Program-made: the position numbers and the translations under genes
In this document: positions 481 through 61,149 of the stretch, one piece after another
Position numbering within the stretch: position 1 is the stretch's first letter
How the letters are laid out: each line of letters begins with the position of its first letter
DNA from: Blasia pusilla
Lineage: Eukaryota
Length of the DNA: 64,000 nucleotides
Direction: 5' to 3'
Assembly: GCA_050084515.1 (NCBI GenBank)
Contig: CM114271.1
Coordinates: 7,130,001 to 7,194,000, forward strand
The notes under the pieces: generated by a model
The model's database searches: none
Seen by the model: the letters and a program-made list of their open reading frames with translations, nothing else
Told to the model about the DNA's origin: nothing

Positions 481-1239
481 TTATTTAATACTACGCAGAT
501 GTCCCCTTAGGTTTATCCTCCCGTCCTTATTTATAACTATCCACGCATTTCAAACTAAAATGCAATATTCTCATCAATTGTTCTTAGATCCTATGATAAC
601 CATGATATAGTGCCAACGCCAATATATTGATGGTATGCTATACCGCAACCCAATTATATGAAGCCTATTCTTACACTGAATTTGGGGGCATGGGATATGC
701 ATTTTAGTATGTGGAATGCAAGAATTTAATCTATATTTTTAGCACTATATCACATAAGTTTGGAGAATTGGAAAATTATACATGGAACCTATGGAACCTT
801 AAAGGGGGTGAGAGGGAGGGGCAAGATTGCATAATGACAAAATGAGTGTGAATTTGATTCTTCTATATGGGTGAATAATTTTCTTTCAATAACTAAAATC
901 CTTTAAATCCATAACAAAGAAAATTCCAAGGGGGTGGGAAAGGGAATGAAAAATTACGGGAAAATTTTCAATAGATGCAAGTTCTTCATTTCTATTGACA
1001 TAAGTCAACGGTCTTTGACAAATCCCCATGGAACCCTATGAAATGCTTTGGTGCACCTCTTCCGAAAGAATCGCTTGAAGTTGATAAGAGTTTATCAACG
1101 TTGGTCAAATGTGTCGTGCGCATATACATCGCTACACAACATACATCGCTGTCACCGAACACACACACAAACACGCACGATCCCATGCTAACTCATGGCA
1201 TCCAAACACAAACGTGAGAAGTACCAAAATATGTCCAAT

Positions 1240-1960
1240 CACCCGCGACTTGCCTACCCTGTTGACCACAGTCAACGGTGGTCGATCATCGTGCCTCACT
1301 GCCTGTGAGCGACACCCTGGATCTAGAATGGAATCCACTAACAAATGGGAGGGGCGCTCCACTCTCGCATACGCCCCCCGTAACACCGTATGGGGCACCA
1401 AGTTGGTCCACCATAGACGCGGGCGATGGGCTCTAGAACCTACACTCGCCGCATCCAAGAACTCTGCTGGGCCCATCCAGGCACGCACCTGATGAGCGCT
1501 CGTCACCACCCGTGACCTGGAGTCTCCTAAGATCGGCACATTCTCTAGAATGTAGGCTGGAGAATGAGACTGGTGCTCCTATAACTGCCGTAAGACCCTC
1601 AACATCTCCCAGAACAGCTTGGAACGAGTCTCAGCAAACCCGCTGCCTTGTCTAGCACTCGATTGGCCTTGATATGGCCAACCGACAATAACCAAATCAA
1701 TGGTGCCTAACCGGTCTAAGTGATGCGCCCCCAACAATGAAATATCCCTCGGTAGGGAACTCTGGTACCAAGTACCATGGACGTAGACAATAAGTCGAGA
1801 AAACATAGGCGTAACTATGCCACATGTCTTAGTGAGACGCGCCTCGCAACATCATCACTCTCCACATACAATTACTGCTGCACTCGCATTCCTACATGCA
1901 AAACAACAGCTAACCCGATGCTAATCCCTCCAAAGAGATCTAACACTCAAATACCCTCCT
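1240..1960 (-). pseudogene. DNMT3-like C5-cytosine methyltransferase domain of copy 1 (disrupted)
   Basis: Motif I VLDLFGGISIG (about 1915-1945), motif IV DLVIVGWPYQG (catalytic C to Y), motif VI YILENVP (about 1535-1555), motif VIII AHRPRLWWTN. Contains stops and frameshifts. Confidence 0.85.
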
Positions 1961-4724
1961 CCAGGATACACCACACAATGGGTGTGGTATCCAAGGGTGT
2001 CATCGTAGCACTCCCTGCTACCTCGGGCTACTCAGACCCGTCACGATCCAGTGCAAACGCCTTGCTCCACTCGTTCTGCACGTGCTCATCTGCCAATCGT
2101 CGAAGCTCCTCAATCAAGCCCCACAACGGCACCTCTCCTCCATGGAATGATGCGGCTACCATAACACTCCTCTCCATAGAAATGTCAGGAACGGGAGTAT
2201 CCTCTACATGGACATGTCCCTCAATCAAATCACTAGGCCAAGTGATGGCACTGCTAAATGTTGCTAAGGTGGCCACCTCTCCTGGCTGTCGCTCGATCTC
2301 TGCACCTATGAATCAAACGGGTAACGAGCTAAGGTGCCCATCACTTGATTGCCATCCTGGTATGTAGGATGCTGACTCCTCCCAGTAATCCAGGGAAAAC
2401 CCCATCGGGTATAATACTGCTCCACCAACCAAGACGTCGTAGGACTCTGCATCAGTCACTATTGCCTTGGCTCGTACCACAGACTTATCTGTAAGATGTC
2501 TTGGGCAAATCCTCACCACGACCTCCTGTCGGGTGATATACTGTGTGGTACTTGCTCCACCCAAGGATGTTTATATCCGGAATGGATAACGCTCCACATC
2601 GGCTCTCGTCAAGCCCAATCCTTTGAATGACGCTTTCCCCAACATCAGGGGTTGTGCTCCTGAACCAACAAGCTCTACCTCCGGAACTCACCAACTGGAA
2701 GACCGCTCCTTAGTTATCCAGCAACACAACACCAGGAGAATCCATGGCATGCTCTATTGCGGATCTAGCAGGCATCTCCGCCATCCTAGCAGCCGCATCC
2801 TGCCAAGAATCTGACGTGGACGGCCCGAGCATCCGCTCAAAGGGCAGGTCCATAACCTCCTGCAATCACCTCTTAATGTGATGCAAGAACACCAACTCGA
2901 CGCTCATATAGCATAGCGGCCAGCCGCAAAGCCTCCGCGGATATATCCCCCAACGTCATAACATCGGAAGCAGAAAATAAAGGAGCGCTGTACACAATGT
3001 TGGCCGCCCCCAACAACGTGCTCGACACAAGCCCCTCCTGAGCATCAACAATAGGAGTCGTCACACTCGCTTCTCCCATCGCCCTCCGTGCGTGCACACC
3101 AACAACATCACCAACTCTCCAAGAACTATGATCAGGACTCATCGATGGGGTCCTTGTTGCCTCGGACAATGTGAAAGACTGAGGAAGCCTAGTTTGTTTC
3201 CTGGCTTCCCCTCGCTGCGGATCCAACTCTACGGCTGCTCCACGCGTCACAACTACGGCTGCCTCCATCTGGGCAACCCCACAACTATGACTGCCTTCTC
3301 ATCCGGGAACGGCTCCGTCCATGACACATAGTGTGGGTCATAGTAGAGTTGCCATGCCTCAATCTCCTGGGCATATCTGTGGGAGAACTCATGTTAATCG
3401 TCCATGGGTGCCCCCTCTAAATGCTAGAACATACCTTTCCATGCTGTAAACGGGTTGAACTCTCTAGAGTTCCTAGCGTGCTGTGAGTCACCCCAACTCC
3501 TAAACTCTGCAATGAAGTCGTGTAGCTCTATGGTGCCTACAACACCCAAAAACCTACGCGGTCCTCTACCCTGGTCGTCCATCTCGTACGCCCAACTGGT
3601 AGGACCACTCAATGTGTACGGTGGATCACTAACACACTCCTCTACACGCTCCCCCTTTTTTGAAGATGATTGAGAAGGAGATCAAGGTGGTCTCTCATGT
3701 GGAGACCCTCGAAACCTCGCATCACTCCGGATAAACCCTCGAGAGCTACTCTCACGTCCACTACCTCGTCTTTCAAAATCCTAAAAGGATGCCGTGATGG
3801 CCCTCGTGCCCCTCTCACATGATCACTCTCAACCTCTTGAGTAATCCCTCAATCACTCATCCCAAACATGCGGCACTCAATCTACACTCTCCCTCCCCAA
3901 GACGTGTAATGTGCGACAACAAGCGGCGTGGTGTGGAAAATTGACCAGACTATCATCTCATCGACAACCTACCCTCAAATCCGGACATCCCACACAGGTC
4001 TCTGTCCCCTAAACCACATACATAAATGATGCTCTCAGCATCCACACAACCGAATATCCCCAAATAAACTACCCAAATCCCAAAATCCCTCATGCGTGTA
4101 GGGTAAAGGACCAGAATGGGTAACCTGAACTCATGTCGATGTTGCTCCTCAGCAACCGCAAATCTCGACCCCAACTCGGTTGTGGAGACAACTCCTCCAA
4201 TTAGCAAGTCATACTCCTCATGTACTGACGCTGCTCAAAACTCCTCGATGGACAGTGCGGTTCCAACGGAACGGTGCGCCGTTGCAGGCGGCACAGAATG
4301 GCTACGAACGACAAGGCCCTCGATGGTGGGATGCGGCACTCGGCGTCATACCCTCCTCAATAAAAAATAAACCTACACTCTGCTCTACAATGACGGTGTG
4401 GCTCCGCAATCGAGATGGTGCGGTGCGACCACGAGCAACACTATGCACCAATCGGCGGCACGTTGCGGCTATGGGCGTCACGGCTCGGTACTCGATCATT
4501 GTCAATCGGCTACCAATCACAACATAGCTACATGAAATCAATAACGGTGGCGGCCAAAACAAAGTACGTGGTGGCGACGCAAGTCTGAGAATCAACGAAC
4601 GTCGTGGAAGACCCTCCACTCCGTAATGGCGGAAATGGCAACCAAAGAGTGGACAACGGCCGAATGTGGCTCTGAGCAACGCTGAGCAACAGCAATGGCT
4701 GATAGTGGCCGTTGGACGGTGGAT

Positions 4725-17600: not shown

Positions 17601-19900
17601 AAGGATTGTCACGGCTGCATCTTGGGAAATAAATTTATTTGCCCAAGTCTTTTTTTTTATTTGAGCACCCTTTGCCAGCATCTGATTTACAAGGGCGTCG
17701 CCCAAGAACCCCTTGTACTCTGCCGGGTGGGTCGTTAGCACTTTCTTCACTCGATCGCAATCCTGGATCCAGTGGTGGCTCACATTCCCCTCCGATATAA
17801 TCCTGCACATCCAAACTCAATATAAGAAATTTTGCAAGGTACATGGGTTCCTGCAACCCGTCGGAATCCGACCGGTTGTCACAGCTCATGGTCGGAATGG
17901 TAGCTACGAGCTAAATTTTGCAACCCACCAGAGTCAGACGGATTGCATTCAGATTTGTGATTGCCTGGTTTCAACCCATCGGACTCCGATGGGTTGTCAG
18001 ATAATTTGTATTTAGAGAGTGGTTACCGAGAGGAAAGTGAACATATCAACCCGTCGGAGTCCGACAGGTTGCGCAATTTCAATTAAAGCTGCAATTTGAT
18101 GCCAAAAATGTAGCTCCCCTACCTCCAAATGCAACCTGTCGGACTTCGGCGAGTTGCTTTTGGCCAAAAACATCAAAAAAACATCCAAAAACAGTTGTGA
18201 GTCAAGCAACCCGTCAGACTCCGACGAGTTGCTTTCTTCAGAAAACATCGAAAAACATCGGCCAGTCAAGCAACTCGTCGGACTGCGACGAGTTGCTTTC
18301 GGCCAAAAACATCCTAAACCTGTGGTCGGTTGAACAACTCGTCGGACTCCGACGAGTTGCTTTCGGCCAAAAACATCCTAAACCAGTGATCAGTCGAACA
18401 ACTCGTCAGACTCCGATGAGTTGCTTTCGGCCAAAAACATCCCAAAAATAGTGGCGACTCAAACAACTTGTCGGAGTCCGACGGTTTGCAGCAAGAGGAA
18501 ACTTACGTGTTCATGGCATGCTTGGCCATCTCCACCATCGCCATGTGATGAGGGTATGGATTTAGCACGACTTCCTTCACGCAAAAATGTGCCTCCAATG
18601 AGTTTGGGCGCTCCTTTGCAAACTGGGTCCATGCCATAAACCAGTGGTTTCCATCCCAGATGAAGAAATATAGGTTCCGCATCCGGTTGAATTATGTACC
18701 CTCTATCGCCCTTTTGAATTCCTCATCTCTCATCCTCCAGAATGTGTCGAGCGCTTCCAAGTCCTCCTCTGTAACCTGCGCTTGGGTTCCATGCTCATCG
18801 TAAGGCTGAACATAGAACGGAGGGAAGCTGTCGACGTAGGATGCTATCGGTGCCGATTGTTTTTGCTTTGCAATATCCTCGTCAGACTAAATTTCGCGGA
18901 CGTACTCCATTGTTTGCAATCGGCAAAGTGGAATTCTCGGGGCGTTTTTGCCCTCCATCAGTGCCATCTGCTTTACCACCTGTCACAACGAGGACAAGGT
19001 CAATAAGCTACAATGAATTGCCATTGAATTGCAACATGGGCGTTCACATAACTCAAAGAACACAGATCCTCTCTTACCCGCTCGAAGATTGGGTGGGGTG
19101 TCTTCTTGACCAAGCGCTTTGGGACAGCAGCTGGCAAGTCCATTGGAAACTCGTCGATCCGATAGAAGTCAATTTCTTCTGCCGGGCTTAGAGACGAGGA
19201 TGACCGCTCTCTTGCTTCTTCAGCGATGTCCACCATCTCCACGCTGGCGGTCCTCATGACCTCATCGTCCGTCACTTGAACTTTGGCCGTTTTCGCTATA
19301 TTGATTGTGTCCCCGGACTTCATCAGGGATATTTCTTGCATCTCAACACTTTTGGTTGGACGGGCAAGGCTTTCTTCAATGGCAATGGCTTTTTCCCTCC
19401 GAGATTTTTCCAATTCTGCTCTCCTCACCGACGCATCCAGACACTTCTTTTCACGTTTTCGCCGGCGATCCTTTTCTTCAAGGCCTGCGACGCCTCAGCC
19501 TCTGCTTTCTATTTTTCGAGCACCTCATTTACACATTTTGCAAGAAGCTCTTGCATGTGCATCTCTGCTTCCCTTTCCCACTCCTTGATTTCTTGCTACC
19601 TTATCTCATTGGCCGAACGAGGCCTCGGAGATGGTGACGCAAGAGTCCTCATGGACTTAGGAGTGAAGCTCCTAGCCCTGGTTGCTTGAGATTTTTTCCT
19701 CATCATTGTTCCCGAAATTGCCTCTTATGGACAAGGAAATTGCTCTCTATGCATGATGAATCGGCTCGAGGAATCTCCTTGATGAGTTGCCTTACTGATG
19801 TCGCCTTGATGAGTAGCTCAAATAGTCTCGCGATCGTTCGCTCGAATCGTCTTGCGATGAGTCGCTGTGTAAAGCGCCCCTTGGTATCTGGTCAGCTGTT
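14683..19900 (-). pseudogene. Intron-containing gene: ParB/Srx-like domain + helical region + beta-class N4C/N6A DNA-methyltransferase-like domain (in-frame stops)
   Basis: Exon at about 18505-18980 translates IPLCRL..VRE...YFFIWDGNHW (18641-18655). One frame runs from 17810 to about 15850 through stops and contains VDLLVADLPSGL (16020-16031 = DLPS). The last exon reads GGREKSPALMQTLIELCSRPGDLVFDLVGLSGASMRSA*KSGRNILCLE (15126-14980), with the stop at 14683. The 5' boundary is approximate. Confidence 0.72.
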
Positions 19901-21200
19901 GCGCGAAAGAGCAATTGAGATCGCGAAACAAAAAACCGGAAATGAGCGAACCTTCGCCTATTTATACTTTTCGAGCCGTTGGGCTGACCTTTGGGTCGCA
20001 TCGTCCTTCCGATGGCGACGTGCCGGCCGTTATGGAAGTCTGGACGTGAAAAAAACTAGTTCGACGACTTCGACGGGTTGCACGCTTCCCGAGGGTTCAA
20101 GGCATCCGTCCTCGTGGCATCCCGTCGGAGACCAACAGGTTGCACGCCTCCGCCGTCTTTGGACAAGAACATGAGGTACCCGTGCAACCCATCAGAGACC
20201 GACACGTTGCGCGCCTATGCCATCTTCGGACAAGAACGCTAGGTACCCGCACAACCCGTCGGAGACCGGTGGGTTGCACGCTTCCCTCGTCTTGGGATAA
20301 CAAGGCGGGCTTCCCGCGCAACTCGTCGGAGGCCGACAAGTTGCACGCTTCCTTCATGTAAGCATTACAAGGCGAGGCACTTGCGCAACCCGTCTGAGGT
20401 TGAAGGGTTGCGCGCCTCCGCCGTCTTTGGGCAAGAAGGTGCGTCATCCGCGCAACTTGTCGGAAATAGACGGGTTGCTCGCTTCCTTAATGTAAGTGTT
20501 ACAAGGTGAGGCACTTGCGCAACCCGTCTGAGGCCACGGGTTGCGCGCCTCCGCCGTCTTCGGGCAAGAAGGCGCGGCACCCGCGCAACTCGTCGGAAAC
20601 AGACGGGTTGCACGCTTCCTTCATGTTAGCGTTACAATGTGAGGTAGAAGCGCACAACCCGTCCAAAGCCGACGGGTTGCATGCTTTGCTTATCTTGGGT
20701 TAATAGGCGAGTTACTAGGGCAACCCGTCGGTTATCGACAGGTTGCACGCCTTTCTATCCCTCGGGTAACAATGCGACAACGCATAGTTCCGAGGCAAGC
20801 CATTGCAATCCGACGGGTCACAAGATCTACCTTGAGTTGGACAATCCCGCAAAAGTCCCCAATGATTGGTTGCCTTAGCATATGCAAGTGATATCTTGTG
20901 TTTGATGCTATCTTGTGTTTGATCTTTTTTTTGGAACCCGTTCAAAGCCGACGGGTTCCAAAAAAAAGAAGTGCATGCTTTGCAACCAACGTCTCTAATT
21001 CCCAAATTCTGCAACCCACCTAACTCGGACAGGTTGCAACAGAATTGAATCCATTGTGTCTGACATTTTCACCTACCAAACTTCATCTTGACAGTCAAAT
21101 TCTGTCAGGAGAATCTGAGTCCCTATTCACTATAAATTAAACATTATCATTCTCATTCTCATACCAATTCTCTCTCTCCTCCTGGTGGAATCTTCGGGGA

Positions 21201-22516
21201 ATGGATAATTATGTGAAGCTCACTTGTGGCAATCATCTAGCGGCCCTTCCTCAATTAGAAATCGTTCGACCGCAAGCTCGTGAGTCTTTCATAGCAATGG
21301 ATGAAAATTTTCTCTCAGTTCGATTTCTTCTCCAAATTGGAACCATCTTTGTATCCAAGGATGTTAGGGTGGACGGTACGGAGGACATAATTGGTGAGAC
21401 AGTCCAGCCAGTGATTGCAGACCGTAAAGTATGGAATCTCCTATCTCTAGCAAATGGTCAATATAGAGTTTACGGCTTGCCCCTGAATTCCTTTGTTTCC
21501 CAAGTAGACTGTCGAGAATTTCTTAGTGCACCGAGCTCTACCTTTGCAACTCCTAGCTCAGTAGATCCGGCTTCGACTCCAACTTCACACGCTCATAACA
21601 GTGTTGTACTTCCTGAAGACATTCCAGATGTTGTCAACCTCAGTGGATATGTTGGACACCAACCGGGCCCTCTGTCCGCCTACTCGTTCCTCTTGCAAGT
21701 ATCAGGCAATAGTTTGCTATCGTCTTTGGCCTTGAAAATGTTCAAGCACATTCTTGTCGACAAGCTGCCGCCCACGTACGATGGTAATTGCATTTTTGAG
21801 TTGCCTCCACTTGCTGCTCCTGCTCAAAAGAAAGATGGAGGACGCTTGAAGGGTATGGAAAGAAAGTCTGATTGTCATCGATGGTGTAGGCTTCAACGGA
21901 CTAGTGCTTCAATTCCATATGGTCCTTGGATTGTCTCCTGCCGCCAATGCGTTGGAGCCTTGGAGTGTAGAAGTCCAGCATGCCCGTATCTAGAGCGCAA
22001 CGGGCGAGTCAATACCTCGCAATTCCCCCCCAAGAATGCAGAAAATCCATATGAGGTCGGTGCCACCGTACCCCCGGGAGGCCATCGATGTCCTCATTCT
22101 CAAGCATCCCCCTTCTGCGTTGGAGCGTGTCCTGCATACTTATTTTTCATTGTCCACGACTTGGACTCCATGTCAGATTACACAAGGCTGGAAGTTCATG
22201 TTGGCTGCCATACTCATCTTGTGACCGATGCAATTCAGAGACACATCAAGGAGGATGTGGCAAAGAAAGTTGTCGAGGTCTACAGAAACTCTCCGGGTTC
22301 AAATCTTGGAGTGATTAAGCTAACAACAGCAATATAAATTTATGAACAATTGCTTGGAATCCCTAGACAAGGCAAGATCATGGCTGCTGAGGAGAAACAA
22401 CTCTGGGAAAATCTCGCATTTCTCGTTGATCCTAAATACTGCCGGAATTTGCTGCGTAAAAAATGGGTACTGGATGGAAAGACGGCCGAAATGGATGCCA
22501 TTTCCAGAATCAAGGT
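21201..22516 (+). pseudogene. Probable Mutator-like transposase N-terminus with GCM/WRKY-like zinc-binding domain, truncated by the Ty3 insertion
   Basis: 378-aa ORF with DCHRW...TS...CVGALECRSPAC...N.SQF...C...CVGAC.A...R.EVHVGCHTH, continuing by frameshift into ORF 22350 up to the retroelement boundary. No catalytic DDE domain is visible. Confidence 0.5.
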
Positions 22517-23096
22517 TTTGTGCGAATCCACATCGTCATACAATATACATCGCTGACATACCATACTCACATACATACATAACATAGACGAGAGCATCCA
22601 CAAACACAAGTGTACCACAAGTGAAATCCGTGAAAGACCTACTATCATAAAACACGTATAGAATCACATACAATCGAGCCAAACCCACTCCACGATGGGA
22701 GAATCTAGGTCGAAGCTTGCGGGAAACACCATAGCCAAGAGCTCTACTCACTACCAAGGCTAACTCCCAACGCAATAGGCTCAACTCAAAGAACTGACTG
22801 TTCTTTGAGTGCACTCCACCTTATATCCTCCAACCTAAGAGCGGGCCCTACTGGAAAGCTCACCCTCAATTGAGTAACCCCCAACCCTATGTATGAAATC
22901 GCATCTCTACCTAGACAATGCGGCCCTACATAAGGTATGGCCTCTACTAGCACACTATACTCTACGACATAATCCGTATGGTCATGACAGTTGTCGTGCG
23001 AATCCACATCGTTATACAACATACATCGCTAACATACCATACTCACATACATACATAACATAGACGAGAGCATCCACAAACACAAGTGTGCCACAA
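22517..23096 (-). repeat. 3' terminal structure B-ac-A-B of copy 2
   Basis: Direct comparison: 22996-23096 matches 22520-22620, and 22621-22989 matches 31969-32337. The internal junction on the plus strand is CATGACA-gt-TGTCGTG. Confidence 0.9.
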
Positions 23097-23110
23097 CTCG
23101 CCCCCCTAAC
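23097..23110 (-). promoter_or_regulatory. Polypurine tract
   Basis: Minus-strand GTTAGGGGGGCGAG directly abuts the inner B repeat. Confidence 0.7.
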
Positions 23111-23274
23111 TGGCGGTTAGGTCCCTCTAACTCCCAGGTAGCCCTATACATCTACTACATGCTATACACCTTCTTGGTGCACGAATCAGAAGGCCGGATG
23201 CTAGGTTGCCCCATCGTTAGTCTCACATCTGTAATCCATATCATGCAAATATCAAGTCATCTACCCCTCCTAAG

Positions 23275-23410
23275 TACATCAAGGACAAACCCACCTTCCA
23301 GTAGGAACAACATCCATACATGGAGTCAAACACATCATGTGCCAACCCCTAGAACACCGATTATACACCAACATACGTGCTGCGATACCAGCGGACCCAC
23401 ACAACATTCA
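23275..23410 (-). pseudogene. PHD finger at the integrase C-terminus
   Basis: Read-through after ORF 23408-23992: *MLCGSAGIAARMLVYNRCSRGWHMMCLTPCMDVVPTGRWVCP*C, a C4HC3 pattern with two Cys positions mutated. Confidence 0.82.
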
Positions 23411-24560
23411 CCTCAAGCTAGCACTTATCATGGCTAAACTTGGGTCAACAGAACCATCCACATTTGGAAGATGACATGGCGCACAATTACGCACATGGTC
23501 CTTCCAAACAACTCCATCACGACCCTCCAACATGAGAACTCCATAAGCTAACACCTTGCGTACTCGTAAAATAGTGCGGCCTGCCGTCACATCCAACGTT
23601 GTCGGTGCAATCTGCTGCAAATAGACATAGTCCCCCACATGGAACCTACGAATCGGTGGTCGAAAACCTCCACCCGGAATGGTTGCATACCGCAACGTAT
23701 CCCTGTGTTGAGCAATGGCAAGATTCTCAAAGGATGTTGGAAAAACTCTCCGAAAGAGCTCTGCCCGCTGAGAACACACTCTCATCCACATCTCTGGGTC
23801 ATCAAGGTTCACCACCTCACTAGACTCCCGACGAATTGCTGCTGGAAAGTCTGGATCTCGGCCGTATAACAAAAAATAATGTGAGAAGGAAGCCAAGGAT
23901 GCTTGACGACTGAACCTATACCCCATGGCTAACCATGGAAACTGAATATCCCAGTCTCCAAGATGCCCCTTCTGTAGGCTATACTTGCGCAATGCCCTCT
24001 TCAGCGTCTAAACCACACTCTCAGCCAAACCATCCGCCTCTAGATGATCTCGAGACGTGGTCCGATGATCAATCAACGCCTTGTCACACAAGATCTGAAA
24101 CTCACCCTGAAACTCTGTACCCTGGTGGGTCAGCACTTCAGCTGGTGCACCAAAATGACTAAGCACTCTATCAAGAAACGCGTACGCCGTTCCCTCACTT
24201 GCCTTGTCAGGTAATGCCACTAACTCAATCCACTTGGAGAAGTGCTCCACCATCACCAACACATATCGATGATGTCGTACAATCAACGGTAACGGTCCCG
24301 CAAAGTCCACACTCCAACGTTAATCCAACCCCATAATAGGCAAGGGGTGTAACTGTGGTGTAGGGGCATTGAATGATGCCCTCACCCGGTCACAAACCAT
24401 ACAACATGACACCAACTGCTGCACCTGAGTATGCATGCCACGCCACCAATACTGACCAAGGAGTAAGCTATACGTACGCTTTATCCCAAAATGTCCCAAC
24501 TCCTCATGGGCATGTCGCACAATGCGCTCTCTCTGAGCCAAATGCGGCACTACTCGTACT
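23408..24560 (-). pseudogene. Retroviral-type DDE integrase
   Basis: HEELGH...CMVC zinc motif, DFAGPLP, VMVEHFSKW, EVLTHQGTEF, ADGLAE, WDIQFPWLAMGYR. Confidence 0.92.
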
Positions 24561-24962
24561 CTACCATCCTCCCACACACGGAGAATATGTGTTCCCTCCA
24601 ATCGATACCTCTTAGCACGTTGAAGAACACGGTCTCGCTCCTTGGCACTCACTATGCCTGGCATCCTACTGGTCCGTAGGAACTCCAACACCAACGCATC
24701 ATCATGAATATCATGCTGATCCGTACCACCATCTCCAACCTTAGGATCTGAAGGCTGGCCATCTTCCCTCTGACTAGAGTAAGATACCATGTGGTCCTCC
24801 ATACTAGAGTCCACCCCTAACCAACATAAAAAGGCGGATGCATGCCAACCTGGCACCATCTCCTCATCAACCTCGCCATGCCATCTAGCCCCAGTTGTAT
24901 CCTCTTGGCTAGTACATGGGTTCCTACTCAACCCATCAAAGCATCAAGGTTGGCAACCAGGT

Positions 24963-26260
24963 CTATGTACCACCGGAAGTCATACTCTGTAAGATAAGAG
25001 CCCACCGTGCAAGCTTCCCTGTAAGCTTGTCAGACTCCATCAACCACTTGAGCGGCTGGTGATCAGTAACAAGGGTAAATTGTGTGCCAAACAAGTAACA
25101 CCTAAAGTGTGCCATAGCCCACACTACTGCCAAGCACTCTCCCTCATATGAACTATAACGCGACTCCGTTGCATTATTCGAACGACTTGCGTAGGCCACC
25201 ACAAACTCCATGTGCTCATCATCATGTTGTGTCAACACCGCTCCAAGTCCCAACCTACTCCAATTAGTGTGTAATTGAAATGGGCGCTCTCTGATAGGTC
25301 TCCTCAAGATAGGCGCCGCCACCAACTGGGCCTTAAGCTCCACAAAAGATCTCTCCTAATCATCTCCCCAATGCCACTCTTGATCTGATTTCAGCAATTG
25401 GTTCAAAGGCTTTGCCATAGCACTAAATCCCTTCACATACCTCCGATAGTAGTTCGCCAATCCCATGAATGCCCGAACTCTACTCACATCTACCGGACGC
25501 GGAATAAGTGCAATAGCCTCCACCTTTGCTTGCTGAACTCCCAAACCACCTGGATAGATCACGTGACCCAAGTACTCAACATCCTTATGGAAGAACTTAC
25601 ACTTTCCTGGATGCAAACGTAGACCATGAGCTTTCAACCGCTCAAACACCATCTGCAAATATATCTGATGCTCCTCCACCGTGTTACTGAACACCAAGAT
25701 ATCATCAATGTAACACCGAACAAAATCCAACCCTGGTAGGATCCTGTCCATCACTCTCTGAAACTCGGCAGGTGCATTCTTCAACCCAAAGGGTAAGAAT
25801 TTCCACTAGTACAAACAATCCTTGCCATGAGAGTTGACACGCCATTTGCTATCTTGGCCTTGTCACTCTCCCGAATCGGCAATTGATGGTATCCTGCCCA
25901 AAGATCCAAAGTACTGAAAATCTTTGCCTGTCCGACCACATCAAAGATCTCCTCATGTGTAGGCATGGCATACCTATCGGCCTTGGTTTGCCGATTGATA
26001 GGACAATAATCTCCACACATCCGCCTATCCGTGTAGTTGCCATGCATATCCTTTTTAGGAGGCATGATAGTGGCTGATGCATACTCTCCATGCGACAACT
26101 CCACTAATCCAACCTCCAAAAGGTCCAACGTCCTACTCTGAATCAGGTCCCTCTCCATATCACTATATCGGTAGGGACGACGGAAGATTGGCGTATCAAT
26201 AGCCAAATCAATCCGTATACCGGGTCCAACCAAAGAACCCAACTCCTTCATGGTAAAGGC
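24963..26260 (-). pseudogene. Reverse transcriptase and RNase H (Ty3/Gypsy type)
   Basis: RMCGDYCPIN, FSTLDLWAGYHQ, KNAPAEFQRVM, CYIDDILVFS, YLGHVI, FQLHTNWS, YSSYEGECLAVVW, FTLVTDHQPLKWL. Confidence 0.95.
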
Positions 26261-26629
26261 AAAACAACTCTTATAAGCACGTAGGAACTGTGTCAAGCAT
26301 TGTTTTTCACCTCCCGTAAGCTTGGGCCCAAGTAATGGCTCCCAAGTCTCCTCCACTGGCACACTAGAGGGAGAGGACGATGCCATTGGGTGCTACGCAA
26401 CCCCCTCACAAGATGGTACATCCTTAGCTACGCCATCATCTAAGCAAATAACTCCTCCACCAGCATGAGCAACCAACTCCACCTGCCCAGCCATTACATC
26501 CCATTTACTCCAAGGATGCAAAATACTACTCTCCTTGCCCCCACCGGATGCCTCTACCGTCCCGGTAGCCATCGAGCTCATTACAAGGGGTGGAAGACCC
26601 ACAGACATAGTCCGAAGTCGACGCTGCTC

Positions 26630-27600
26630 GGCCATACCAAGACTCAAAATCCAAGTCAAACAATTCAGGTCCATGGCCTGACCCAACACATGACGTCGTG
26701 AAGCCTCAGAAATGGAAGCAACCATTTGTCACACCAGTAGCAAATCCCATCGCACGCTGTCTCTCATCAGCGTTAGGCTCCACCAACTGTCGCACATGAG
26801 AATCCCATACAAGCGCGGGACCACCTTCCCTGTATGCATGTGACGAGGGAAAACTCATAAATGTGGGTAGTGCCATCCTAGGCTGGCTTACACGGTTCAC
26901 CACTGCCATGGGTGACTGATCAATAACCCTCACCACCTGAGAAATTTGCCCTGTATCCAAGATACTATCCACTGTAAGGCAAGGATCCCGCTGCACTGCA
27001 TCATGTGCTCGACATAGAACCTCCCTAGGCAAAAAGTTTGTCCACCACAAGCGTGGACGATGTGCACGCTGAGCCAATCAAGCGCCAGATCCAACAACAC
27101 CGCTGGTCCAATCCAAGACCGCACCTCATGAACACTCGCCATCATCCGGGTCCGAGTGTCACCCAACAATGGAACATTCTCGAGAATGTAAGCTAGAGCA
27201 CGTGCCTGATGAACCTGAAGATGTCGTAACACCCGTAACATCTCCCAAAACAATCGAGAGCTAGGGTTGTGTAATCCCTCACAACGACCAGCATGTGTAT
27301 GACCCTGACATGGCCATCCAACAATCACCAAATCCACAGGACCAACCCTCTCAAGGTCCTGCGCCTCCAACAATGCAATGTGTGACGGAAAAGCACGTTG
27401 GTACCCACGAATAGCTGATGGCGGTAACAACTCAGGATATCTCCGCATCAACTGACCAATATGTCGAGATGAGACTCTCTGGGCCATCTCATCTCGCTCC
27501 ACATACACGTATCTCTGCACATGAATACCGGCTGCAACACTGCAGCCAAACCAGTGTTAATCCCACCAAAGAGATCTAACACACAAATGCCCTCCAGCGG
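26630..27600 (-). pseudogene. DNMT3-like C5-cytosine methyltransferase domain between PR and RT
   Basis: Motifs in linear order: I VLDLFGGINTG, II YVYVERDE, IV DLVIVGWPCQG, VI YILENVP, VIII AHRPRLWWTN, IX ERQRAMGF, X RRHVLGQAMD. Split by frameshifts. Confidence 0.93.
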
Positions 27601-27812
27601 ATACTGCCATACAAGGGGTGTAGTATCCAAAGGGGATAACCCAACTGGACCAAAAGTAGGAGTCCGCCGTGGGGCCTCCTCTTCCTCGTGAGGTATAACA
27701 GCCTCACACCAAGCCTCCTGCACTAGGCGATCAGCCTCCTGCCGTAGTGCACGGCTTGAACTCCAAAGTGGCACATCCAACGATGAGGATGCCATTGCTA
27801 CAAAAATAGGGA

Positions 27813-28520
27813 CTACGGCAGGAGGCTGATCGCCAACCTCCTAATAGGGACCTCCTCTACCTCCTCATGCACATGAGAATCCATAACAGAAACATTACCC
27901 TCCAAAAAGTATCCTGGCCAAGTGACTACTCCACTAAAACCAGCCACAGATGCTAACACTGTTGGGGAAGACCCTCCTGGTCGAGCCCCATAAATAAATC
28001 TCACAGGAACTTGGCTCATACATCCATCCCCAGACTCCCAACCAGGTCTATAAGACGTTGTCTCAGTCCAGTAATCCATCTGAAAACCCATCGGGTACAA
28101 TACTGCTCCTCCAACTAGTACATCATACGACTCGGCTAATGTGACTACCGCAGATACTCCCAACCGGGAGCTATCAGTCGCATGATCTGGTCTCAACTGT
28201 ACATAAAACTTCTCCCGTGTCATGAATTGAGACCTATCATTGGCTCCTCCAAGTGATGTTTGAATCTGGAATGGGCAAGGCTCAAGCTCTGACCTCCGAA
28301 TACCCAAACCAATATATGCCGCCTTTCCCAACATCAAAGGTTGGGCACCAGAGTCTAACAAGACTCTATCTGGTCTATACACCTGTCCTATAGGACTCAC
28401 CAATCGAAATATCCCACTCCGGTTGTCCAACATACATACACCAGGTGAGCCTCTCACGATCAATGGCTGGCCGGGCTGGTAATGCATCCATCTTCGCCGC
28501 TGATGCCTGCCAAGTAGCAC
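27813..28520 (-). pseudogene. Aspartic protease
   Basis: VLLDSGAQPLMLG ... YDVLVGG. Confidence 0.85.
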
Positions 28521-29035
28521 TGGTACTCAATGCTACACCTGACATAGAGGGTCGCTCCACCGCAACACCCTCATCCACCTCAGCACGTGTAGCAGTAACA
28601 TCCCCACATTCACACAACGTGGGTGCTAGCTGAAATACAGGAGCTAAGTCAACTCCTAAAGCCATCAGCTCTGTGGCCGAAAACAATGGGGATCCCAACA
28701 CTGAAGTTGCCATCCGCAATATTGCATTGGATGTTGCATCTGTGTCTACTACACGCGATGTAGATGCCTCAGTCTCCACTTTCGGCTCAATAGGCTGCGT
28801 AGGAACCATGGATGGAGTCCTAAGCACCTCAGACAACAAGAATGACTGGGGAAGCCTAGCCTACCTCCCAGCCTCACCCCTCCGTGGGTCCAACTCCACA
28901 GTAGCACCACGTGGCTCTGACCCTCGAGTGGCTCCTCTCGTAACTGCAATTGATGCCTCAACCTGTGCTGCACTCGCCATATAAGAGAGATCATCCCCTC
29001 CATAAGAGGTGGGAGCCCCTGCTCCTGAACCTGAT

Positions 29036-30343
29036 CTATCTTTGGATACGACCATAGTAGCCAACCGCTCCAATCTGCTCAATCTGGGACCATAGCGACT
29101 CTGTCGTAGTGGTAGGGGTAGCCACTGTAGGCTCTCCAACCACGGGTCCACCTCTACCACCTCTACCATCTTGGCCTCTCGGAGCTACTCCACCACGGCC
29201 GCGGCCTGATCTCAACTGTGGATGAAGATCAAAGCAACGCTCTCGAGGATGACTTGGTCTCCCGCAATAATCACACTGAGTTGGGGCCGACTGAGGCCCA
29301 TCCTCCAAAGTCCGTCTCCCATCCTCTTGGGGACAAAACTTCCTAACATGATCACCTCCACATGTCCAACATGATCGCCTTCTGCCGCAGGCAGCAAATG
29401 AAGGCAATGGTCTTTGCGCAAGTGTCCCTCTAAGACCTGACTGAGGTCGTGTGTACCCCCCACGACTCCCACTACTACTACCACCACCACTACTATGAGA
29501 CTGTGAGGTGGGCTGCTGAACACGAGAAGTAGTAGTTGTATCCCTATTGAATGCGGATGTCACCACTCTCTCCTTCACCATGTTAAGCTCAATCTTCTCA
29601 GATAGAGCAAACACATGGGTCAATGTGGGTGAATCATCACTCATAAGAGTAGCATCACGTACCCTACGGCGCAACTCTCTATCCAAGATCCCATACCAAA
29701 ACTGGATTTCCTGAGCCTCAGTCACACCCTGGGTAACTGAAATCAAGCGTCGCATACAAGTGTATGCCTCACGAAGACTTTCACCAGTCTTTCGCTCAAA
29801 TTCTTGAAGACTTCTCAACTTCTCTATCCTCACTCCCTGATAGTTCGTCGTTAACCTCTTGAAGAACTCTGCAACCGGGCTAAACGATGGTGGGGCACTA
29901 GTACCTCCACTAGTACCCCCACTGGTACCTCCATGGGTACCTCCACTGGTACCCCCACTCCGGCTCGTACTCGTACCACTCAACGTCGGGTTGGCTGGCA
30001 TAGTAGGAGCACTACTACCAATACCACCATGGGTGATAGACACATAGCCTGAAGACCAATATTGTCTCCATGCCTCAATCTCAGCAACATGGTCCTTCCT
30101 AAACTCATGGTAATCATCCATGGGTGGTCCCTCCAAGTGCTGAAACAACCCCTTCCAAGCCAAGAAGGGTGTAAACAACGTGGCGTTCCGCAACATCTGC
30201 ATATCACACCACGTATCAAACTCCTGCATGAAGTCCTCCAACTCAATGGTGCCCACTGCACCCGAGTATCGTCGTGGGCCCTTCATGGCCCCATATATCC
30301 CGTCCATGTCCCAAATCAATGGAGCTGCAACACTCGATAACAA
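29036..30343 (-). CDS. Gag-like protein with two CCHC zinc knuckles
   Basis: 435-aa ORF; GESLREAY, CWTCGGDHVRKFC, CDYCGRPSHPRERC. Confidence 0.85.
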   Translation of the reverse strand: MLSSVAAPLIWDMDGIYGAMKGPRRYSGAVGTIELEDFMQEFDTWCDMQMLRNATLFTPFLAWKGLFQHLEGPPMDDYHEFRKDHVAEIEAWRQYWSSGYVSITHGGIGSSAPTMPANPTLSGTSTSRSGGTSGGTHGGTSGGTSGGTSAPPSFSPVAEFFKRLTTNYQGVRIEKLRSLQEFERKTGESLREAYTCMRRLISVTQGVTEAQEIQFWYGILDRELRRRVRDATLMSDDSPTLTHVFALSEKIELNMVKERVVTSAFNRDTTTTSRVQQPTSQSHSSGGGSSSGSRGGYTRPQSGLRGTLAQRPLPSFAACGRRRSCWTCGGDHVRKFCPQEDGRRTLEDGPQSAPTQCDYCGRPSHPRERCFDLHPQLRSGRGRGGVAPRGQDGRGGRGGPVVGEPTVATPTTTTESLWSQIEQIGAVGYYGRIQR

Positions 30344-31957
30344 CGTAGAAGACTCGGTGTTTGGAACACCCTCGTCCTCCTCTTCATCAACTGTCGGAAG
30401 TGGAAAAGGTAGCCGATACCCAAATCCACTCCGTGTAAAACCACCACTGTCCGCACCACGGTCCCCAACCAGACCACCCGACAGCTACGTGATGACCAAC
30501 GCCGATGCCGCACCACCACCAAATTACCACCACTAAGTAACCAAGTGACGTCGATGTCGCTATACTATTCTAGCTCTACTAGCTATGGGTGTAGGCAACC
30601 TAACCTGTCATCACCACCTGAAGCCTCCCACAGTCTACTGGTCATCACTCCAGCCTCACTATCGGTAGCACACAGGAGTAACACTACTATGGAAATCAGC
30701 GTCAACCCTAACAATGGGCGCGCAAGCAAGAAGAAACGATGGAGGGGATCCAAACACAGGAAGTCCAACGACAACCCTCCAATTGCAAATGGAAATCAAG
30801 GTAACACAATCCACAAACGTGGCGCCCCCTGAATCCACAAAAACCACCACACAATTCTAACGCAATAGCTACTCCGCCGCTGGTCGATGACGTGCTAGTC
30901 GAACTCGCAGCACCTGAAAATATCACCTGCATGGAGAGGCTACACCGTACTATGCGCTAGAGGCACATCAACCAAAAACCTGAGATGCATAAAGTGCCTA
31001 ACACATCTCCGAAGAACACCAAATGAGCTACAACAGTGTGTACACTAGCATAGTTAAGAACTCAGCAGTTAAGCGTCCTCCATGCAGAATAGCCCAAAGA
31101 TGGGTGACCAGTTATGCAACACTCAAATCACAAATCCTGCAAAAATTGCCTCACGCCCAAGCAAGCAAGCTTGCTCCTTACTCCGCCTCTCACGCCCACT
31201 CGCCCCGAGTTGCCTCGAAGCCTGAAAACGCCGAGAAATGCTCGAGACATGCCCCTATCGCCCCGTTTGCCATGCTTCGCTATGGAGAGAGAGGCCCAAC
31301 CAGGGCACCCCCAACGGGATAAGCGTCTCCAATAATGAACAAGCCCCTCCGATCCGCTCTCCACCATAGCTAGTTTGCAAAATTTCGATCAAAAATTACT
31401 CCACAAATCCTTGACCAAAATTTAATCTGTTTTGACCAGAATTCAATTGACCACCATAGCTATCTCTCCACAAAAAATCAGCTACAACCAAACTCTATAC
31501 TCTGAGCTAAAAAACAGACAAACTTGCTGTCCATACACCTCCAGAATCGCAAATCCAACAGCGCTTCCGCCCAGTTTCATGCACGCAGAAATCCGCAACG
31601 CTCCACACACTCAAGCACATAGCTTCACATGAAATCACAATACAAGTAGCAATAGGAACCTCTCATCCGATCTGGATAACTTCAACAGAGCTTCCGCACT
31701 CCAAGCTCTCCACATCAGAAAACCGTCGAACACGAATCAGAATCTTCAATCCTTGATAACTTCCAACTCCCTTAACGAAATCCGGCGATCTAAAGTACGT
31801 TGCAAAGCTCTCAGCAAGGCGCTTCTTTCCCAATCAACCACGCACCAGATTGAAACCTCCAATATAGGCCACAAGCCACGAACATCCACGGCCGAGTACA
31901 CAATCAGCCCTAACAAGATCCTACTGATCCACAATCGAAGCTACCATCGATCTACTC

Positions 31958-31970
31958 CAGTTCTTTGAGT
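31958..31970 (-). promoter_or_regulatory. Putative self-priming primer-binding site
   Basis: 13 nt immediately inside repeat A, perfectly complementary to 32132-32144, which lies 29 nt downstream of a minus-strand TATAAG (32173). Confidence 0.7.
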
Positions 31971-32337
31971 GAAATTTGTGAAAGACCTATTGTCATAAAA
32001 CATGTATAGAATCACATACAATCGAGCCAAACCCACTCCACGATGGGAGAATCTAGGTCGAAGCTTGCGGGAAACACCATAGCCAAGAGCTCTACTCACT
32101 ACCAAGGCTAACTCCCAACGCAACAGGCTCAACTCAAAGAACTGAATTTTCTTTGAGTGCACTCCACCTTATATCCTCCAACCTAAGAGCAGGCCCTACT
32201 GGAAAGCTCACCCTCAACTGAGTAACCCCCAACCCTATGTATGAAATCGCATCTCTACCTAGACACTGCGGCCCTACTGAAGGTATGGCCTCTACTAGCA
32301 CACTATACTCTACGACATAATCCGTATGGTCATGACA
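31969..32337 (-). repeat. 5' terminal repeat (segment A only) of copy 2
   Basis: Same length (369 bp) as, and high similarity to, 22621-22989; begins TGTCATG on the minus strand. Confidence 0.93.
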
Positions 32338-32342
32338 AAGGT

Positions 32343-33352
32343 CCTTTGCGTATTGAACAACAAGCTTTTGTTGATTGGTTATTGGAAGTAGGAGAGGGTC
32401 GTGTTCCTTTGCACCCTAATGTGGGAGAAGACTTCATACATTTATCATATGGAATTGTTCCTCGGAGTAACAAGATATGCAATCTTATTGATTTGATCTA
32501 TGGCAATTCTCCCATCTGATTCTAAGACAATTGATTTCTTGAGAGATACAACTATTTTGATACTGAGAAATAAGGTTGTTGACGAAATAAATGGAGATGT
32601 TATGTCTTGATTTCCTGGACAGATCATCCTCTTAACATGCATATATATATATATATATATATAGAGCAATGCTTTGTTATTGGGTATTTTGGATGATAAT
32701 ATAACTTCTTCTTACCAATTCACTACGTATTGTGTCCAGGAGCATATTTACGTCAGCGTCGACTCTATTCCAAATGAGAGGATGAGTCATATCTATCCAA
32801 CTGAATTTTTAAACACATGTTTGCCTTCTGAACTACCTCCACATCGTTTGTGTTTGAAGATTGGTGCACCAATCATGCTCTTACGAAACATGAATGGTTC
32901 ACATGGACAAGCAAATGGGACTAGATTGGTGATTCGTGGATTTATGCAACATTGCATAGATGCTGAAATCATCACATGGAAGAATATTGGAGATCAAGTT
33001 TTTATTCCACGTATCCCATTAATTTCATCTGAATGTGGTTTACCATTTGATTTACGTAGGTTTCAATTCCCTATTCGGTCAACTTTCGCCATGACTATTA
33101 AAAGTCTCCGGGTCAAACTTTACATAAGGTTGGCATTTACTTGCCCACTCATATGTTCTTTCACGGTCAATTATACGCAGCATTATCTAAAATAGGGGAA
33201 AAAAATTCCATCCACAATACCATTAGAAATGACAAACATTCCAAAAAAATATCATACGAAATATAATATATAAAAAAACACTTATAGATAAAATAAATTT
33301 TTTAAATTATATCCATGATCAAATCGTTGACCTTAGCACGGCACCTCACTAG
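32343..33352 (+). mobile_element. Helitron 3' fragment (PIF1-like helicase C-terminus + CTAG end)
   Basis: FVDWLLEVGEG, YPTEFLN, LPPHRLCLKIGAPIMLLRN, NGTRL, FIPRIPL, RRFQFPIRSTFAMTI, GQ; gcacgg..CTAG|T at 33349-33353. Confidence 0.88.
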
Positions 33353-48439: not shown

Positions 48440-50170
48440 CATTCCCAAATCCGACTTTGGGTTGGTGTGAAATGTGCGACAACCCACACTACAACCAAGC
48501 ACTCACCCTCATACGACCTATACTTCTCCTTTGCATCGTTTTTCGAGCGACTAGCGTAAGCCACCACGAACTCTCTACCATCATCGTCGTGTTGGGTGAG
48601 CATGGCTCTAAGCCCCAACATGCTCCAATCGGTATGCAACTGGAAAGAACGCCCCCTGATTGGTCTCCTCAATATCGGCTCGGACGTCAATCTGTCCTTG
48701 AGGAGCTGAAATGCTCTCTCCTGCTCATCCCCCCAATGCCACTCCTCATCCACCTTGGTCAGCAAGGTTAGCGGCTTTGCAATCGAACTGAAACCCTTGA
48801 CGTACTGTCGATAGAAGTTCGCCAGTCCCATGAATGCACAAACTCGACTCACATCTGTAGGGCGTGGAATACATGAAATAGCCTCTACCTTCGTTTGTTG
48901 CACACCAAGGGCCCCCCGGGAATATCGTATGACCCAAGTACTCAATCTGGTCGTAGAAGAACTTGCACTTGCCTGGATGTAGCTTCAGCCCATGTAAATG
49001 CAATTGTCAAAACACCTCCTCTAGATGTCGATCATGCTCCTCAACCGTGGCGCTAAAGACTACCATGTCATCAATATAACACCTAGCCAAATCCAGAACT
49101 GCCAATATCCTATCCATGACCCTATGAAACTCTACCAGGGCGTTCTTTGACCCAAATGGTAAGAACCGCCACTGGTTAAAAAAAAAAACCTTCCCGTCAG
49201 GATCGATACCCCAAAATGATGTCTCTTGCCTGTTCTCCAATCTGATAGGCTGTTGATGATATGCGGCTCGAAGATCTAACGAATTGAAGACCTTTGCATG
49301 CCCAATAGCATCAAAGATCTCCTCATGGGTGGGCATGGCATACCTATCGGACTTTGTCTGCCGATTGATAGGTCGATAATCTCCACACATCCGCCTATCC
49401 GTCTAGTTGCCATGCACATCCTTCTTGGCGGGTATGATACTGGCAGATGCATACTTTCCATGCAACATCTCCACTAGTCGTGCTCCAACCAAGTCCTCGC
49501 TCCTACTCTAAATCAGAGCCCTCTCCATATTACTATACCTATAGGGTTGTCGGAAGATCGGCGTGTCACTCGACAACTCAATGCAAATCCTTGGACCCTT
49601 CAACATACCCAAATCATGCATACTAAATGCAAAACAGCTCCTATAACTCCTTAGGACTGATGTATCCGGCGCCGCTCTCCTCCTGTCAACTTAGGGCCCA
49701 TATCTAGCTCCCAAGTCTCCCTCGTGACTTCAGTAGGACTCTTCGGCGCGGGTGTAGGTGGTTGGTATGGTGCAACCCTGTCTCAAACAACAGAATTTGA
49801 CTGCTCCCCTACAGCCAACTGCGAAATCATATCTCCATATGCAGTACCCGGCACCACGCTCGATGTTGTGGCTACCATCTCCTGGCGTACCTACAAAACA
49901 TCCCAAGAAGTCCAAGGGTGTCTCTCCCGATCACCCCTAGTGTGTCAATCTCCTCGGGTCTCGCCCCCAGCCACTGCCTCAACCGTCTCGGTAGGCATGG
50001 GGCTCACCAACGCAAAAGTTGTGATCTGTCGCATCCGCAAACAACGCTACTCAACTACTTCTAAGCTGAAAATCCATGTCAAGCAATTCAGGTCCATCAT
50101 CGGACCCTAGACATGGCGTCGTGATGCCTTTGATACTAGCAGAACTGCCGTCACTCCTATGGGGAATCCT
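48440..50170 (-). mobile_element. Ty3/Gypsy MTase family, copy 3 fragment (MTase motif X, RT, RH)
   Basis: SRRHV*GPMMDLNCLTWIF near 50070-50125; MCGDYRPIN, CYIDDMVVF, FQLHTDWS, SYEGECL. Confidence 0.9.
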
Positions 50171-60880: not shown

Positions 60881-61149
60881 AAAACCAACATAACCCACAA
60901 TTGGAAAAAATGTGGTACCACTCAATCCCTACTACATCCCATTACACAACATTAATTAGCACTAATATCAACGACAATATCGCCAATAATCCATACTTGC
61001 AAACAACTAACACAACTACCACCTCAAAGCCATTCGTATCTATACCATACTAATTCCTCCCAATTGTCTAGCGTGCATCCCATGTGATAAAAAAAAAGAT
61101 CACTAACTAACATGATTATCTAAGCTTTCACCATAGACCTATTAGTAGG

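Follow-up and report, generated by a model that had tools for sequence, protein, structure and literature searches.

A 9.8-kb Ty3/Gypsy element occupies positions 22516-32337 on the minus strand of a 64,000-nucleotide stretch of Blasia pusilla DNA, referred to here as the window. In coding order, this element (copy 2) carries Gag, protease (PR), a C5-cytosine methyltransferase (MTase), an in-frame TAG, reverse transcriptase (RT), RNase H (RH), integrase (IN), and the remnant of a PHD finger. The minus-strand stop-to-stop open reading frames (ORFs) between 22.4 and 32.4 kb hold Gag, protease, the MTase as four pieces, RT, RNase H, and integrase. Coordinates are reported in Table 1. The order Gag, protease, RT, RNase H, and DDE integrase is that of Ty3/Gypsy elements. 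The protease piece of the window has no Pfam match of its own; Asp_protease_2 and gag-asp_proteas score in relatives. Integrase_H2C2 and rve were found by Pfam in the related copies L043 and L025, and the C-terminal PHD finger of L043 ORF2 matches PF00628 at 2.6e-10. Assignment to DIRS-like elements was rejected on the basis of an rve integrase, not a tyrosine recombinase, and 4-bp target duplications.

Table 1. Features of the retroelement (copy 2) and of two further family copies in the Blasia pusilla window
Feature	Position	Strand	Remarks
Target-site duplication CCTT, upstream copy	32338..32341	-	identical 4 nt at 22512-22515
Repeat A1, 5' long repeat, begins TGTCATGACC	31968..32337	-	370 nt, 96.5% identical to 22620-22989
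Gag region with CCHC-type knuckles	29036..30484	-	ORF; tblastn to Marchantia P0175: residues 1-365 at 64% and 401-606 at 59% identity, one frame change
Aspartic protease region	27849..28487	-	P0175 residues 592-806, 71% identity
DNMT3-like C5-cytosine MTase domain and C-terminal tail	26450..27621	-	motifs I, IV, VI, VIII, IX, X; three frame changes
In-frame TAG ending ORF1, followed by CAC CCA; RT continues in the same frame	26393..26395	-	
RT and RNase H	24990..26344	-	P0173 residues 696-1095, 79-82% identity; RVT_1 and RT_RNaseH in relatives
Integrase, zinc-binding domain and DDE core, internal stops	23421..24700	-	tblastn with L043 ORF2, 61% identity over 474 residues
Degenerate PHD finger at integrase C-terminus, two stops	23276..23420	-	aligns to the PHD finger of L043 ORF2
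Polypurine-like tract GGGGGGCGAG, directly upstream of B1	23097..23106	-	same tract before B1 in L011 and L046
Repeat B1, about 105 nt	22990..23096	-	96% identical to 22520-22620
Repeat A2	22620..22989	-	
Repeat B2, right element end, ends ...GCACAAAA	22516..22619	-	
Target-site duplication CCTT, downstream copy	22512..22515	-	
Copy 1	1174..3567	-	partial Gag, protease, MTase motifs I-VIII; catalytic Cys replaced by Tyr (PYQ)
Copy 3	48463..50169	-	last ~55 MTase residues with a stop; stop ahead of RT, same frame; RT and RNase H; cut off upstream of 50169

The first-pass annotation had described the main C5-MTase motifs in unpermuted order with catalytic PCQ and ENV, and the translation of copy 2 bears this out. 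Read across three frames, copy 2 has motif I (VLDLFGG), motif IV (VIVGWPCQG), motif VI (ILENV), motif VIII (AHRPRLWWTN), ERQRAMGF, and motif X (SRRHVLGQAMD), in the order I-IV-VI-VIII-IX-X. Alignment to a Marchantia relative using tblastn places six frame changes across ORF1, three of them in the MTase at about 27532, 27104, and 26719. Seven ORF pieces were searched with Pfam and one scored, at 26930-27556 on the minus strand (PF00145, E 1.8e-8; 34.6 bits, cut-off 22).

Copy 1 matches copy 2 at 67.6% of nucleotides over 614 nt; copy 3 does so at 72.6% over 1265 nt and at 82.8% over 64 nt. The MTase of copy 1 spans 1174-1985 and is without motifs IX and X because the copy ends near 1174-1222. 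The remnant in copy 3 (50005-50169) reads SRRHV*G..MDLNCLTW, followed by RT. All three copies are dead: copy 2 is frameshifted, copy 1 is truncated and has PYQ, and copy 3 retains the C-terminal end of the MTase only. The MTase had been placed at the same position in all three. It does lie between protease and RT wherever that part of a copy is visible, but this amounts to about 55 C-terminal residues in copy 3 and a PYQ domain in copy 1. Queries with 85 diverse family domains revealed no fourth MTase site in the window. Chance is excluded by the E-values and by recurrence elsewhere. A far more distant Gag/protease-like stretch lies at 60985-63338 on the minus strand, has 26-38% identity to Marchantia ORF1 and no MTase match, and may be another Gypsy family.

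A profile of 17 diverse relatives was searched against PDB sequences. The matches included DNMT3A (5e-28), DNMT3C (3e-26), DNMT3B (~1e-24), M.HhaI (2e-8), and DNMT2 (2e-4). DRM was matched at 1e-13 to 1e-10, with only profile positions 77-204 aligned, to the C-terminal part of the DRM chain; a partial match is expected because DRM is permuted. DNMT1 was not among the listed profile matches at 0.01 or better. The single Marchantia sequence P0175 matched DNMT3A at 1.7e-8 and DRM at 2.6e-3 in the PDB sequences, and ORF1 of L043 scores 51.1 bits for PF00145. An AlphaFold model of the relative P0163 (pLDDT 85.5, pTM 0.87) was searched with Foldseek, and every listed match was DNMT3A, DNMT3B, or DNMT3C (E 1.5e-18, TM 0.82-0.83 on the target). 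Judged by sequence and modelled fold, the domain is DNMT3-like and unpermuted, in line with the original preference for DNMT3 over permuted DRM. Identity as a DRM was rejected, since motifs VI-X do not precede I-V and DRM chains match only part of the profile. The catalytic domains of animal DNMT3A/3B/3C are the best sequence and fold matches and have the same motif order, but they are 20-23% identical and the bryophyte domain sits in a retroelement polyprotein. Plant DRM2 is a distant relative from the same superfamily that is circularly permuted, whereas the bryophyte domain is not. No PWWP or ADD domain was detected by Pfam in the scanned relatives.

In element orientation, copy 2 is arranged as A1, coding region, polypurine tract, B1, A2, and B2, with CCTT on both outer sides. 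L046 has the same A1-coding-B1-A2-B2 layout with AAGG at both equivalent places, and L011 shows it for the 3' part. The window element and L046 have TG..CA ends and a 4-bp duplication, but their repeats are laid out A-coding-B-A-B and not as two equal LTRs. To our knowledge, no standard LTR replication scheme produces A-coding-B-A-B with a DDE integrase. The inner B1/A2 junction, GACA-AC-TGTC, resembles two element ends abutted. Differences between the paired repeats number 13 in A and 7 in B, without a clear CpG excess. Observed/expected CpG is 0.62 in the element and 0.48-0.85 in the background; the element is not below parts of the background and so bears no footprint of self-methylation.

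Relatives were sought by phmmer over 1.84 billion representatives, which gave 765 matches at E 1e-3 or better. Of the 150 best, which were listed, 23 were scanned with Pfam. In nineteen, Pfam recognised domains of retroelements (a Gag knuckle, protease, RT, RNase H, integrase, or Copia-type RT); the MTase stands alone in four, and none of the 23 has a host-type companion domain. Among the 32 proteins from a first protein search, 18 are named: 14 from Marchantia, 2 from Calypogeia, and 2 from Sphagnum. Named close relatives with 60-78% identity are from Marchantia polymorpha, M. paleacea, Riccia sorocarpa, Calypogeia fissa, Sphagnum troendelagicum, S. tenellum, and S. fallax. These hosts are liverworts and Sphagnum mosses, and the land-plant lineage proposed from the window alone is upheld. 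No protein from vascular plants or Klebsormidium was among the listed matches of the protein searches, and neither these searches nor the 150 listed representatives yielded a Klebsormidium or host DNMT3 sequence. Two Marchantia proteins, P0175 with 1278 aa and P0172 with 1248 aa, read as uninterrupted Gag-PR-DNMT and end at the place of the TAG in the window.

Metagenome contigs were searched with a 5-row alignment, and 72 loci with the MTase, all fetched with the MTase as bait, were obtained. The MTase frame is open in 7 of the 63 loci uncut by contig ends; the remaining 56 include about six weak, partial matches that are perhaps not members. In the DNMT tree, only ~0.3 changes per site separate the MTase domain of Sphagnum P0194 from those of Marchantia P0172/P0182, a distance that seems short given the age of the host lineages; it may stem from horizontal transfer or from mixed assemblies. 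A search of the literature outside subscription journals and supplements found no description of DNMT-carrying elements in bryophytes or other land plants, and the passages checked in PMC6453930, PMC5784723, PMC11982613, and PMC8616336 do not mention such elements.

The MTase and RT are separated by a stop codon in most relatives as well as in the window. TAG or TAA stands at the homologous place in 41 of the 43 loci with both flanks, and the other two are degenerate there. Across the 43 loci, the stop is TAG in 31 and TAA in 12. The six bases that follow it in 41 loci are CAACCC (35), CAGTTA (2), and CAACCA, CAACCT, CAACTC, and CAATCA (1 each). L043 encodes an ORF1 of 1369 aa and an ORF2 of 1047 aa in one frame. 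The MTase had been assigned to Pol, between protease and RT. Its placement stands, but it ends ORF1 (Gag-PR-DNMT), and the conserved in-frame stop precedes RT-RH-IN. UAG followed by CARYYA is described as the type I readthrough signal of plant viruses (PMC5382211). The bryophyte loci resemble the tobamovirus signal in having TAG or TAA, then CAA or CAG and pyrimidines, at the gag-pro/pol boundary. They differ from it in that most copies have CAA-CCC and 12 of 43 have TAA, and readthrough is here inferred from sequence. Of the 43 loci, 4 match CARYYA exactly after the stop, the 35 CAACCC loci depart at the last base, and the window copy has TAG CACCCA.

The feature is very probably the MTase module of a bryophyte Ty3/Gypsy LTR family, in which ORF1 encodes Gag-PR-DNMT3-like and is followed by a conserved TAG/TAA with CAA-CCC and then by RT-RNase H-integrase-PHD. 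ORF1 would be the main translation product, with RT-RH-IN-PHD made by occasional readthrough. The MTase would thus be made in Gag-like excess, and could enter the particle within a Gag-PR-DNMT precursor and be freed by the protease.

Three RNA runs with the same species label as the source DNA were mapped to the element (4419, 4382, and 4714 reads). Reads at least 99% alike to copy 2 number 37, 38, and 33 per run; being so few, they place the RNA with relatives and not demonstrably with copy 2. In the labelled organism there is transcription of relatives that are 90-99% alike. Over the MTase bins, coverage is 39-79x where the first mate lies on the plus strand and 0-6x where it lies on the minus strand; this fits sense-strand transcription provided that the libraries follow the usual stranded design. 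About 30% of the reads differ from copy 2 by one base in length at 26724, an out-of-frame place. Some reads connect 23744 with 24751 through an insert of 7 other letters (16, 25, and 38 per run), and 5-7 reads connect 23660 with 30221. These junctions look like transcribed deletion derivatives and not splicing, because their ends are not GT..AG on the element strand.

Several residues of the MTase are invariant in all 17 rows of an alignment of members with 33-76% identity. These are F53, C140, Q141, E183, E321-R322-E323, and R343, and they map to the motif I Phe, the PCQ Cys-Gln, the ENV Glu, the ERE triplet, and the motif X Arg. Between the open copies L043 and L045 (dS ~0.25), dN/dS is 0.15 for the DNMT (341 codons), 0.18 for the protease, and 0.064 for RT. 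In the window, where dS is saturated, it is 0.23 for the DNMT and 0.21 for the protease, both between copies 1 and 2, and 0.16 for RT-RH between copies 2 and 3. Purifying selection acts on the MTase at about the strength seen for the protease; the dN/dS comparison among copies that had been set as a check gave 0.15-0.23. A near-identical pair, L004/L006, has a dN/dS of 0.97 at dS 0.05, which is read as neutral decay after insertion and not as a lineage without selection.

Trees were built by quick maximum likelihood with SH-aLRT support only and are unrooted. The DNMT tree kept 85 rows of 104 and the RT tree 42 of 44. The fetched proteins have two MTase placements, PR-DNMT-RT and RT-RH-DNMT-IN-PHD, the latter including Cymbomonas and Haematococcus. 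PR-DNMT-RT proteins lie on one side of a single branch in both trees (32 against 37 rows with SH-aLRT 97 for DNMT; 8 against 34 with SH-aLRT 100 for RT), and the trees contain the same two sub-clades. The MTase travelled with the element, since the DNMT and RT trees agree. The first-pass annotation had called for MTase and RT phylogenies that set the family against charophyte elements and host DNMT3/DRM; the trees built here cover the fetched family sequences and their relatives, and agree with each other. Its view of the MTase as a family trait and not a one-time capture is confirmed by the three window copies, the 72 metagenome loci, the annotated bryophyte proteins, selection, and tree agreement. 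P0139 represents a third module placement: in this Copia-type polyprotein (RVT_2), a related MTase lies close to the N-terminus.

The same evidence bears on whether the MTase could be a decaying passenger or a chance juxtaposition, that is, a host DNMT3 pseudogene beside a retrotransposon or an assembly artefact. The broken state of all window copies would suit such an origin, but it is made barely conceivable by an identical placement in the three window copies, the 43 loci flanked on both sides, and annotated proteins from seven named bryophyte species. It was rejected on this recurrent placement, the dN/dS values, and open ORF1s of 1278-1369 aa.

DNMT-carrying retrotransposons are known so far from dinoflagellates and one charophyte alga. 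KnitGypsy-Dnmt3 of Klebsormidium nitens has the repeat structure of a DIRS element according to the legend of Fig. 4c, a structure denoted A-coding-B-A-B in that paper, and its Ka/Ks is below 0.2 (de Mendoza et al. 2018, PMC5890265). The bryophyte family shares with it the Gypsy domain set, an unpermuted DNMT3-type MTase in the coding region, A-coding-B-A-B, a streptophyte host, and a similar Ka/Ks (0.15-0.23 here). The hosts differ, being land plants (liverworts and Sphagnum) in the present case. In the bryophyte element, the MTase ends the Gag-PR ORF before the conserved stop and a PHD finger is carried on the integrase, points that may set it apart from KnitGypsy-Dnmt3. The bryophyte family most likely belongs to the same lineage as KnitGypsy-Dnmt3, on the basis of repeat geometry and the figure legend. 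This kinship is argued mainly from the A-coding-B-A-B layout that is common to both. SymbioDIRS-Dnmt3 likewise has a DNMT3-type MTase in a retroelement, but it is a DIRS element with a tyrosine recombinase, whereas the bryophyte element has a DDE integrase and a 4-bp target duplication.

Other Gypsy elements resemble the family in different ways. Chromoviruses are Gypsy elements with a chromodomain on the integrase; they too have a chromatin-reader module at the integrase C-terminus, and the reader in the bryophyte element is a PHD finger. The RT-RH-DNMT-IN-PHD elements of Cymbomonas tetramitiformis (CYMTET_32294), Haematococcus lacustris, and metagenomes are homologous to the family in MTase (34-42% identity), RT, integrase, and the PHD finger at the C-terminus. 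Their MTase is instead located inside pol, between RNase H and integrase, and one branch divides the placements in both trees. The shared DNMT, RT, and IN-PHD together with this one-branch split point to one old lineage that extends from chlorophytes to bryophytes. Alternatively, the bryophyte family took up its MTase independently and its likeness to KnitGypsy-Dnmt3 is convergent. This would agree with the published wording of an acquisition "in the K. nitens lineage" (PMC5890265), and with protein searches that have no Klebsormidium protein among their listed matches. It is nevertheless unlikely, given the unusual A-coding-B-A-B geometry common to both elements and the DNMT, RT, and IN-PHD shared by PR-DNMT-RT and RT-RH-DNMT-IN-PHD elements, each of which forms one side of a branch.

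The placement of the MTase suggests a mechanism of cDNA methylation. As the likeliest mechanism, and along the lines of the first-pass inference, the enzyme may tentatively be proposed to methylate the new double-stranded cDNA or the fresh insertion of the element de novo with SAM, while the integrase PHD reads histone tails to pick the landing site. The main alternative, though a somewhat doubtful one, is an active MTase that works in trans inside the nucleus, its substrate being host chromatin or resident family copies and not particle cDNA. It might then mimic host silencing marks or saturate them, or act with the PHD-integrase to mark the surroundings of the insertion. The complete DNMT3-type catalytic domain, by sequence and model, and the chromatin-reader-type PHD finger on the integrase are compatible with action in trans, and a leaky stop would make ORF1 abundant; location of the MTase in a particle-forming polyprotein favours packaging instead.

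Evidence on activity comes from published yeast assays. SymbioDIRS-Dnmt3 domains from Symbiodinium established CG methylation de novo, and no methylation was detected with the catalytic domain of KnitGypsy-Dnmt3, a result its authors call inconclusive (PMC5890265). The latter could indicate a non-DNA or non-catalytic role, such as RNA m5C, nucleic-acid binding, or a DNMT3L-like partnership with host DNMT3. Such a role is improbable for the bryophyte MTase, as the PCQ Cys, ENV Glu, and ERE/RR motifs do not vary among the 17 diverse members aligned and DNMT2-type RNA enzymes are far worse profile matches than DNMT3A (2e-4 against 5e-28).

The proposed cDNA methylation can be joined with lineage and repeat layout in a broader scenario, which as a whole is speculative and rather unlikely to hold in every part. 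An old Gypsy lineage of green algae and bryophytes would carry a DNMT3-type writer and a PHD reader. In bryophytes, the writer would have moved from pol to the Gag-protease ORF before a leaky stop, and MTase-loaded particles would methylate their own cDNA. DDE integration from a circle-junction-like substrate would give A-coding-B-A-B with target duplications. A DDE integrase would then be working with a replication geometry known until now from tyrosine-recombinase elements. Retrotransposon MTases might also add to de novo methylation in Marchantia polymorpha, because open copies are present there. 

With this family, the range of Gypsy-DNMT3 elements reaches liverworts and mosses of the genus Sphagnum, and the model plant M. 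polymorpha has open frames. Land-plant hosts allow methylomes, transformation, and extrachromosomal DNA to be studied, and open, transcribed relatives make function testable. The stop before RT provides a handle on dosage, the integrase PHD on targeting, and the repeat layout on replication.

Nine other long ORFs in the window were searched with Pfam for a host gene family, and the sole scorer was a Pif1 helicase fragment. This ORF has a Pif1 helicase 2B domain (32665-33195 on the plus strand, 2.3e-16), lies just outside the element, and is possibly a Helitron fragment. A 398-aa open frame without a Pfam match (21141-22337, plus strand) adjoins the right end of the element. Tandem arrays are found at 18177-18432 (period ~64 nt) and 20137-20654 (~67 nt).
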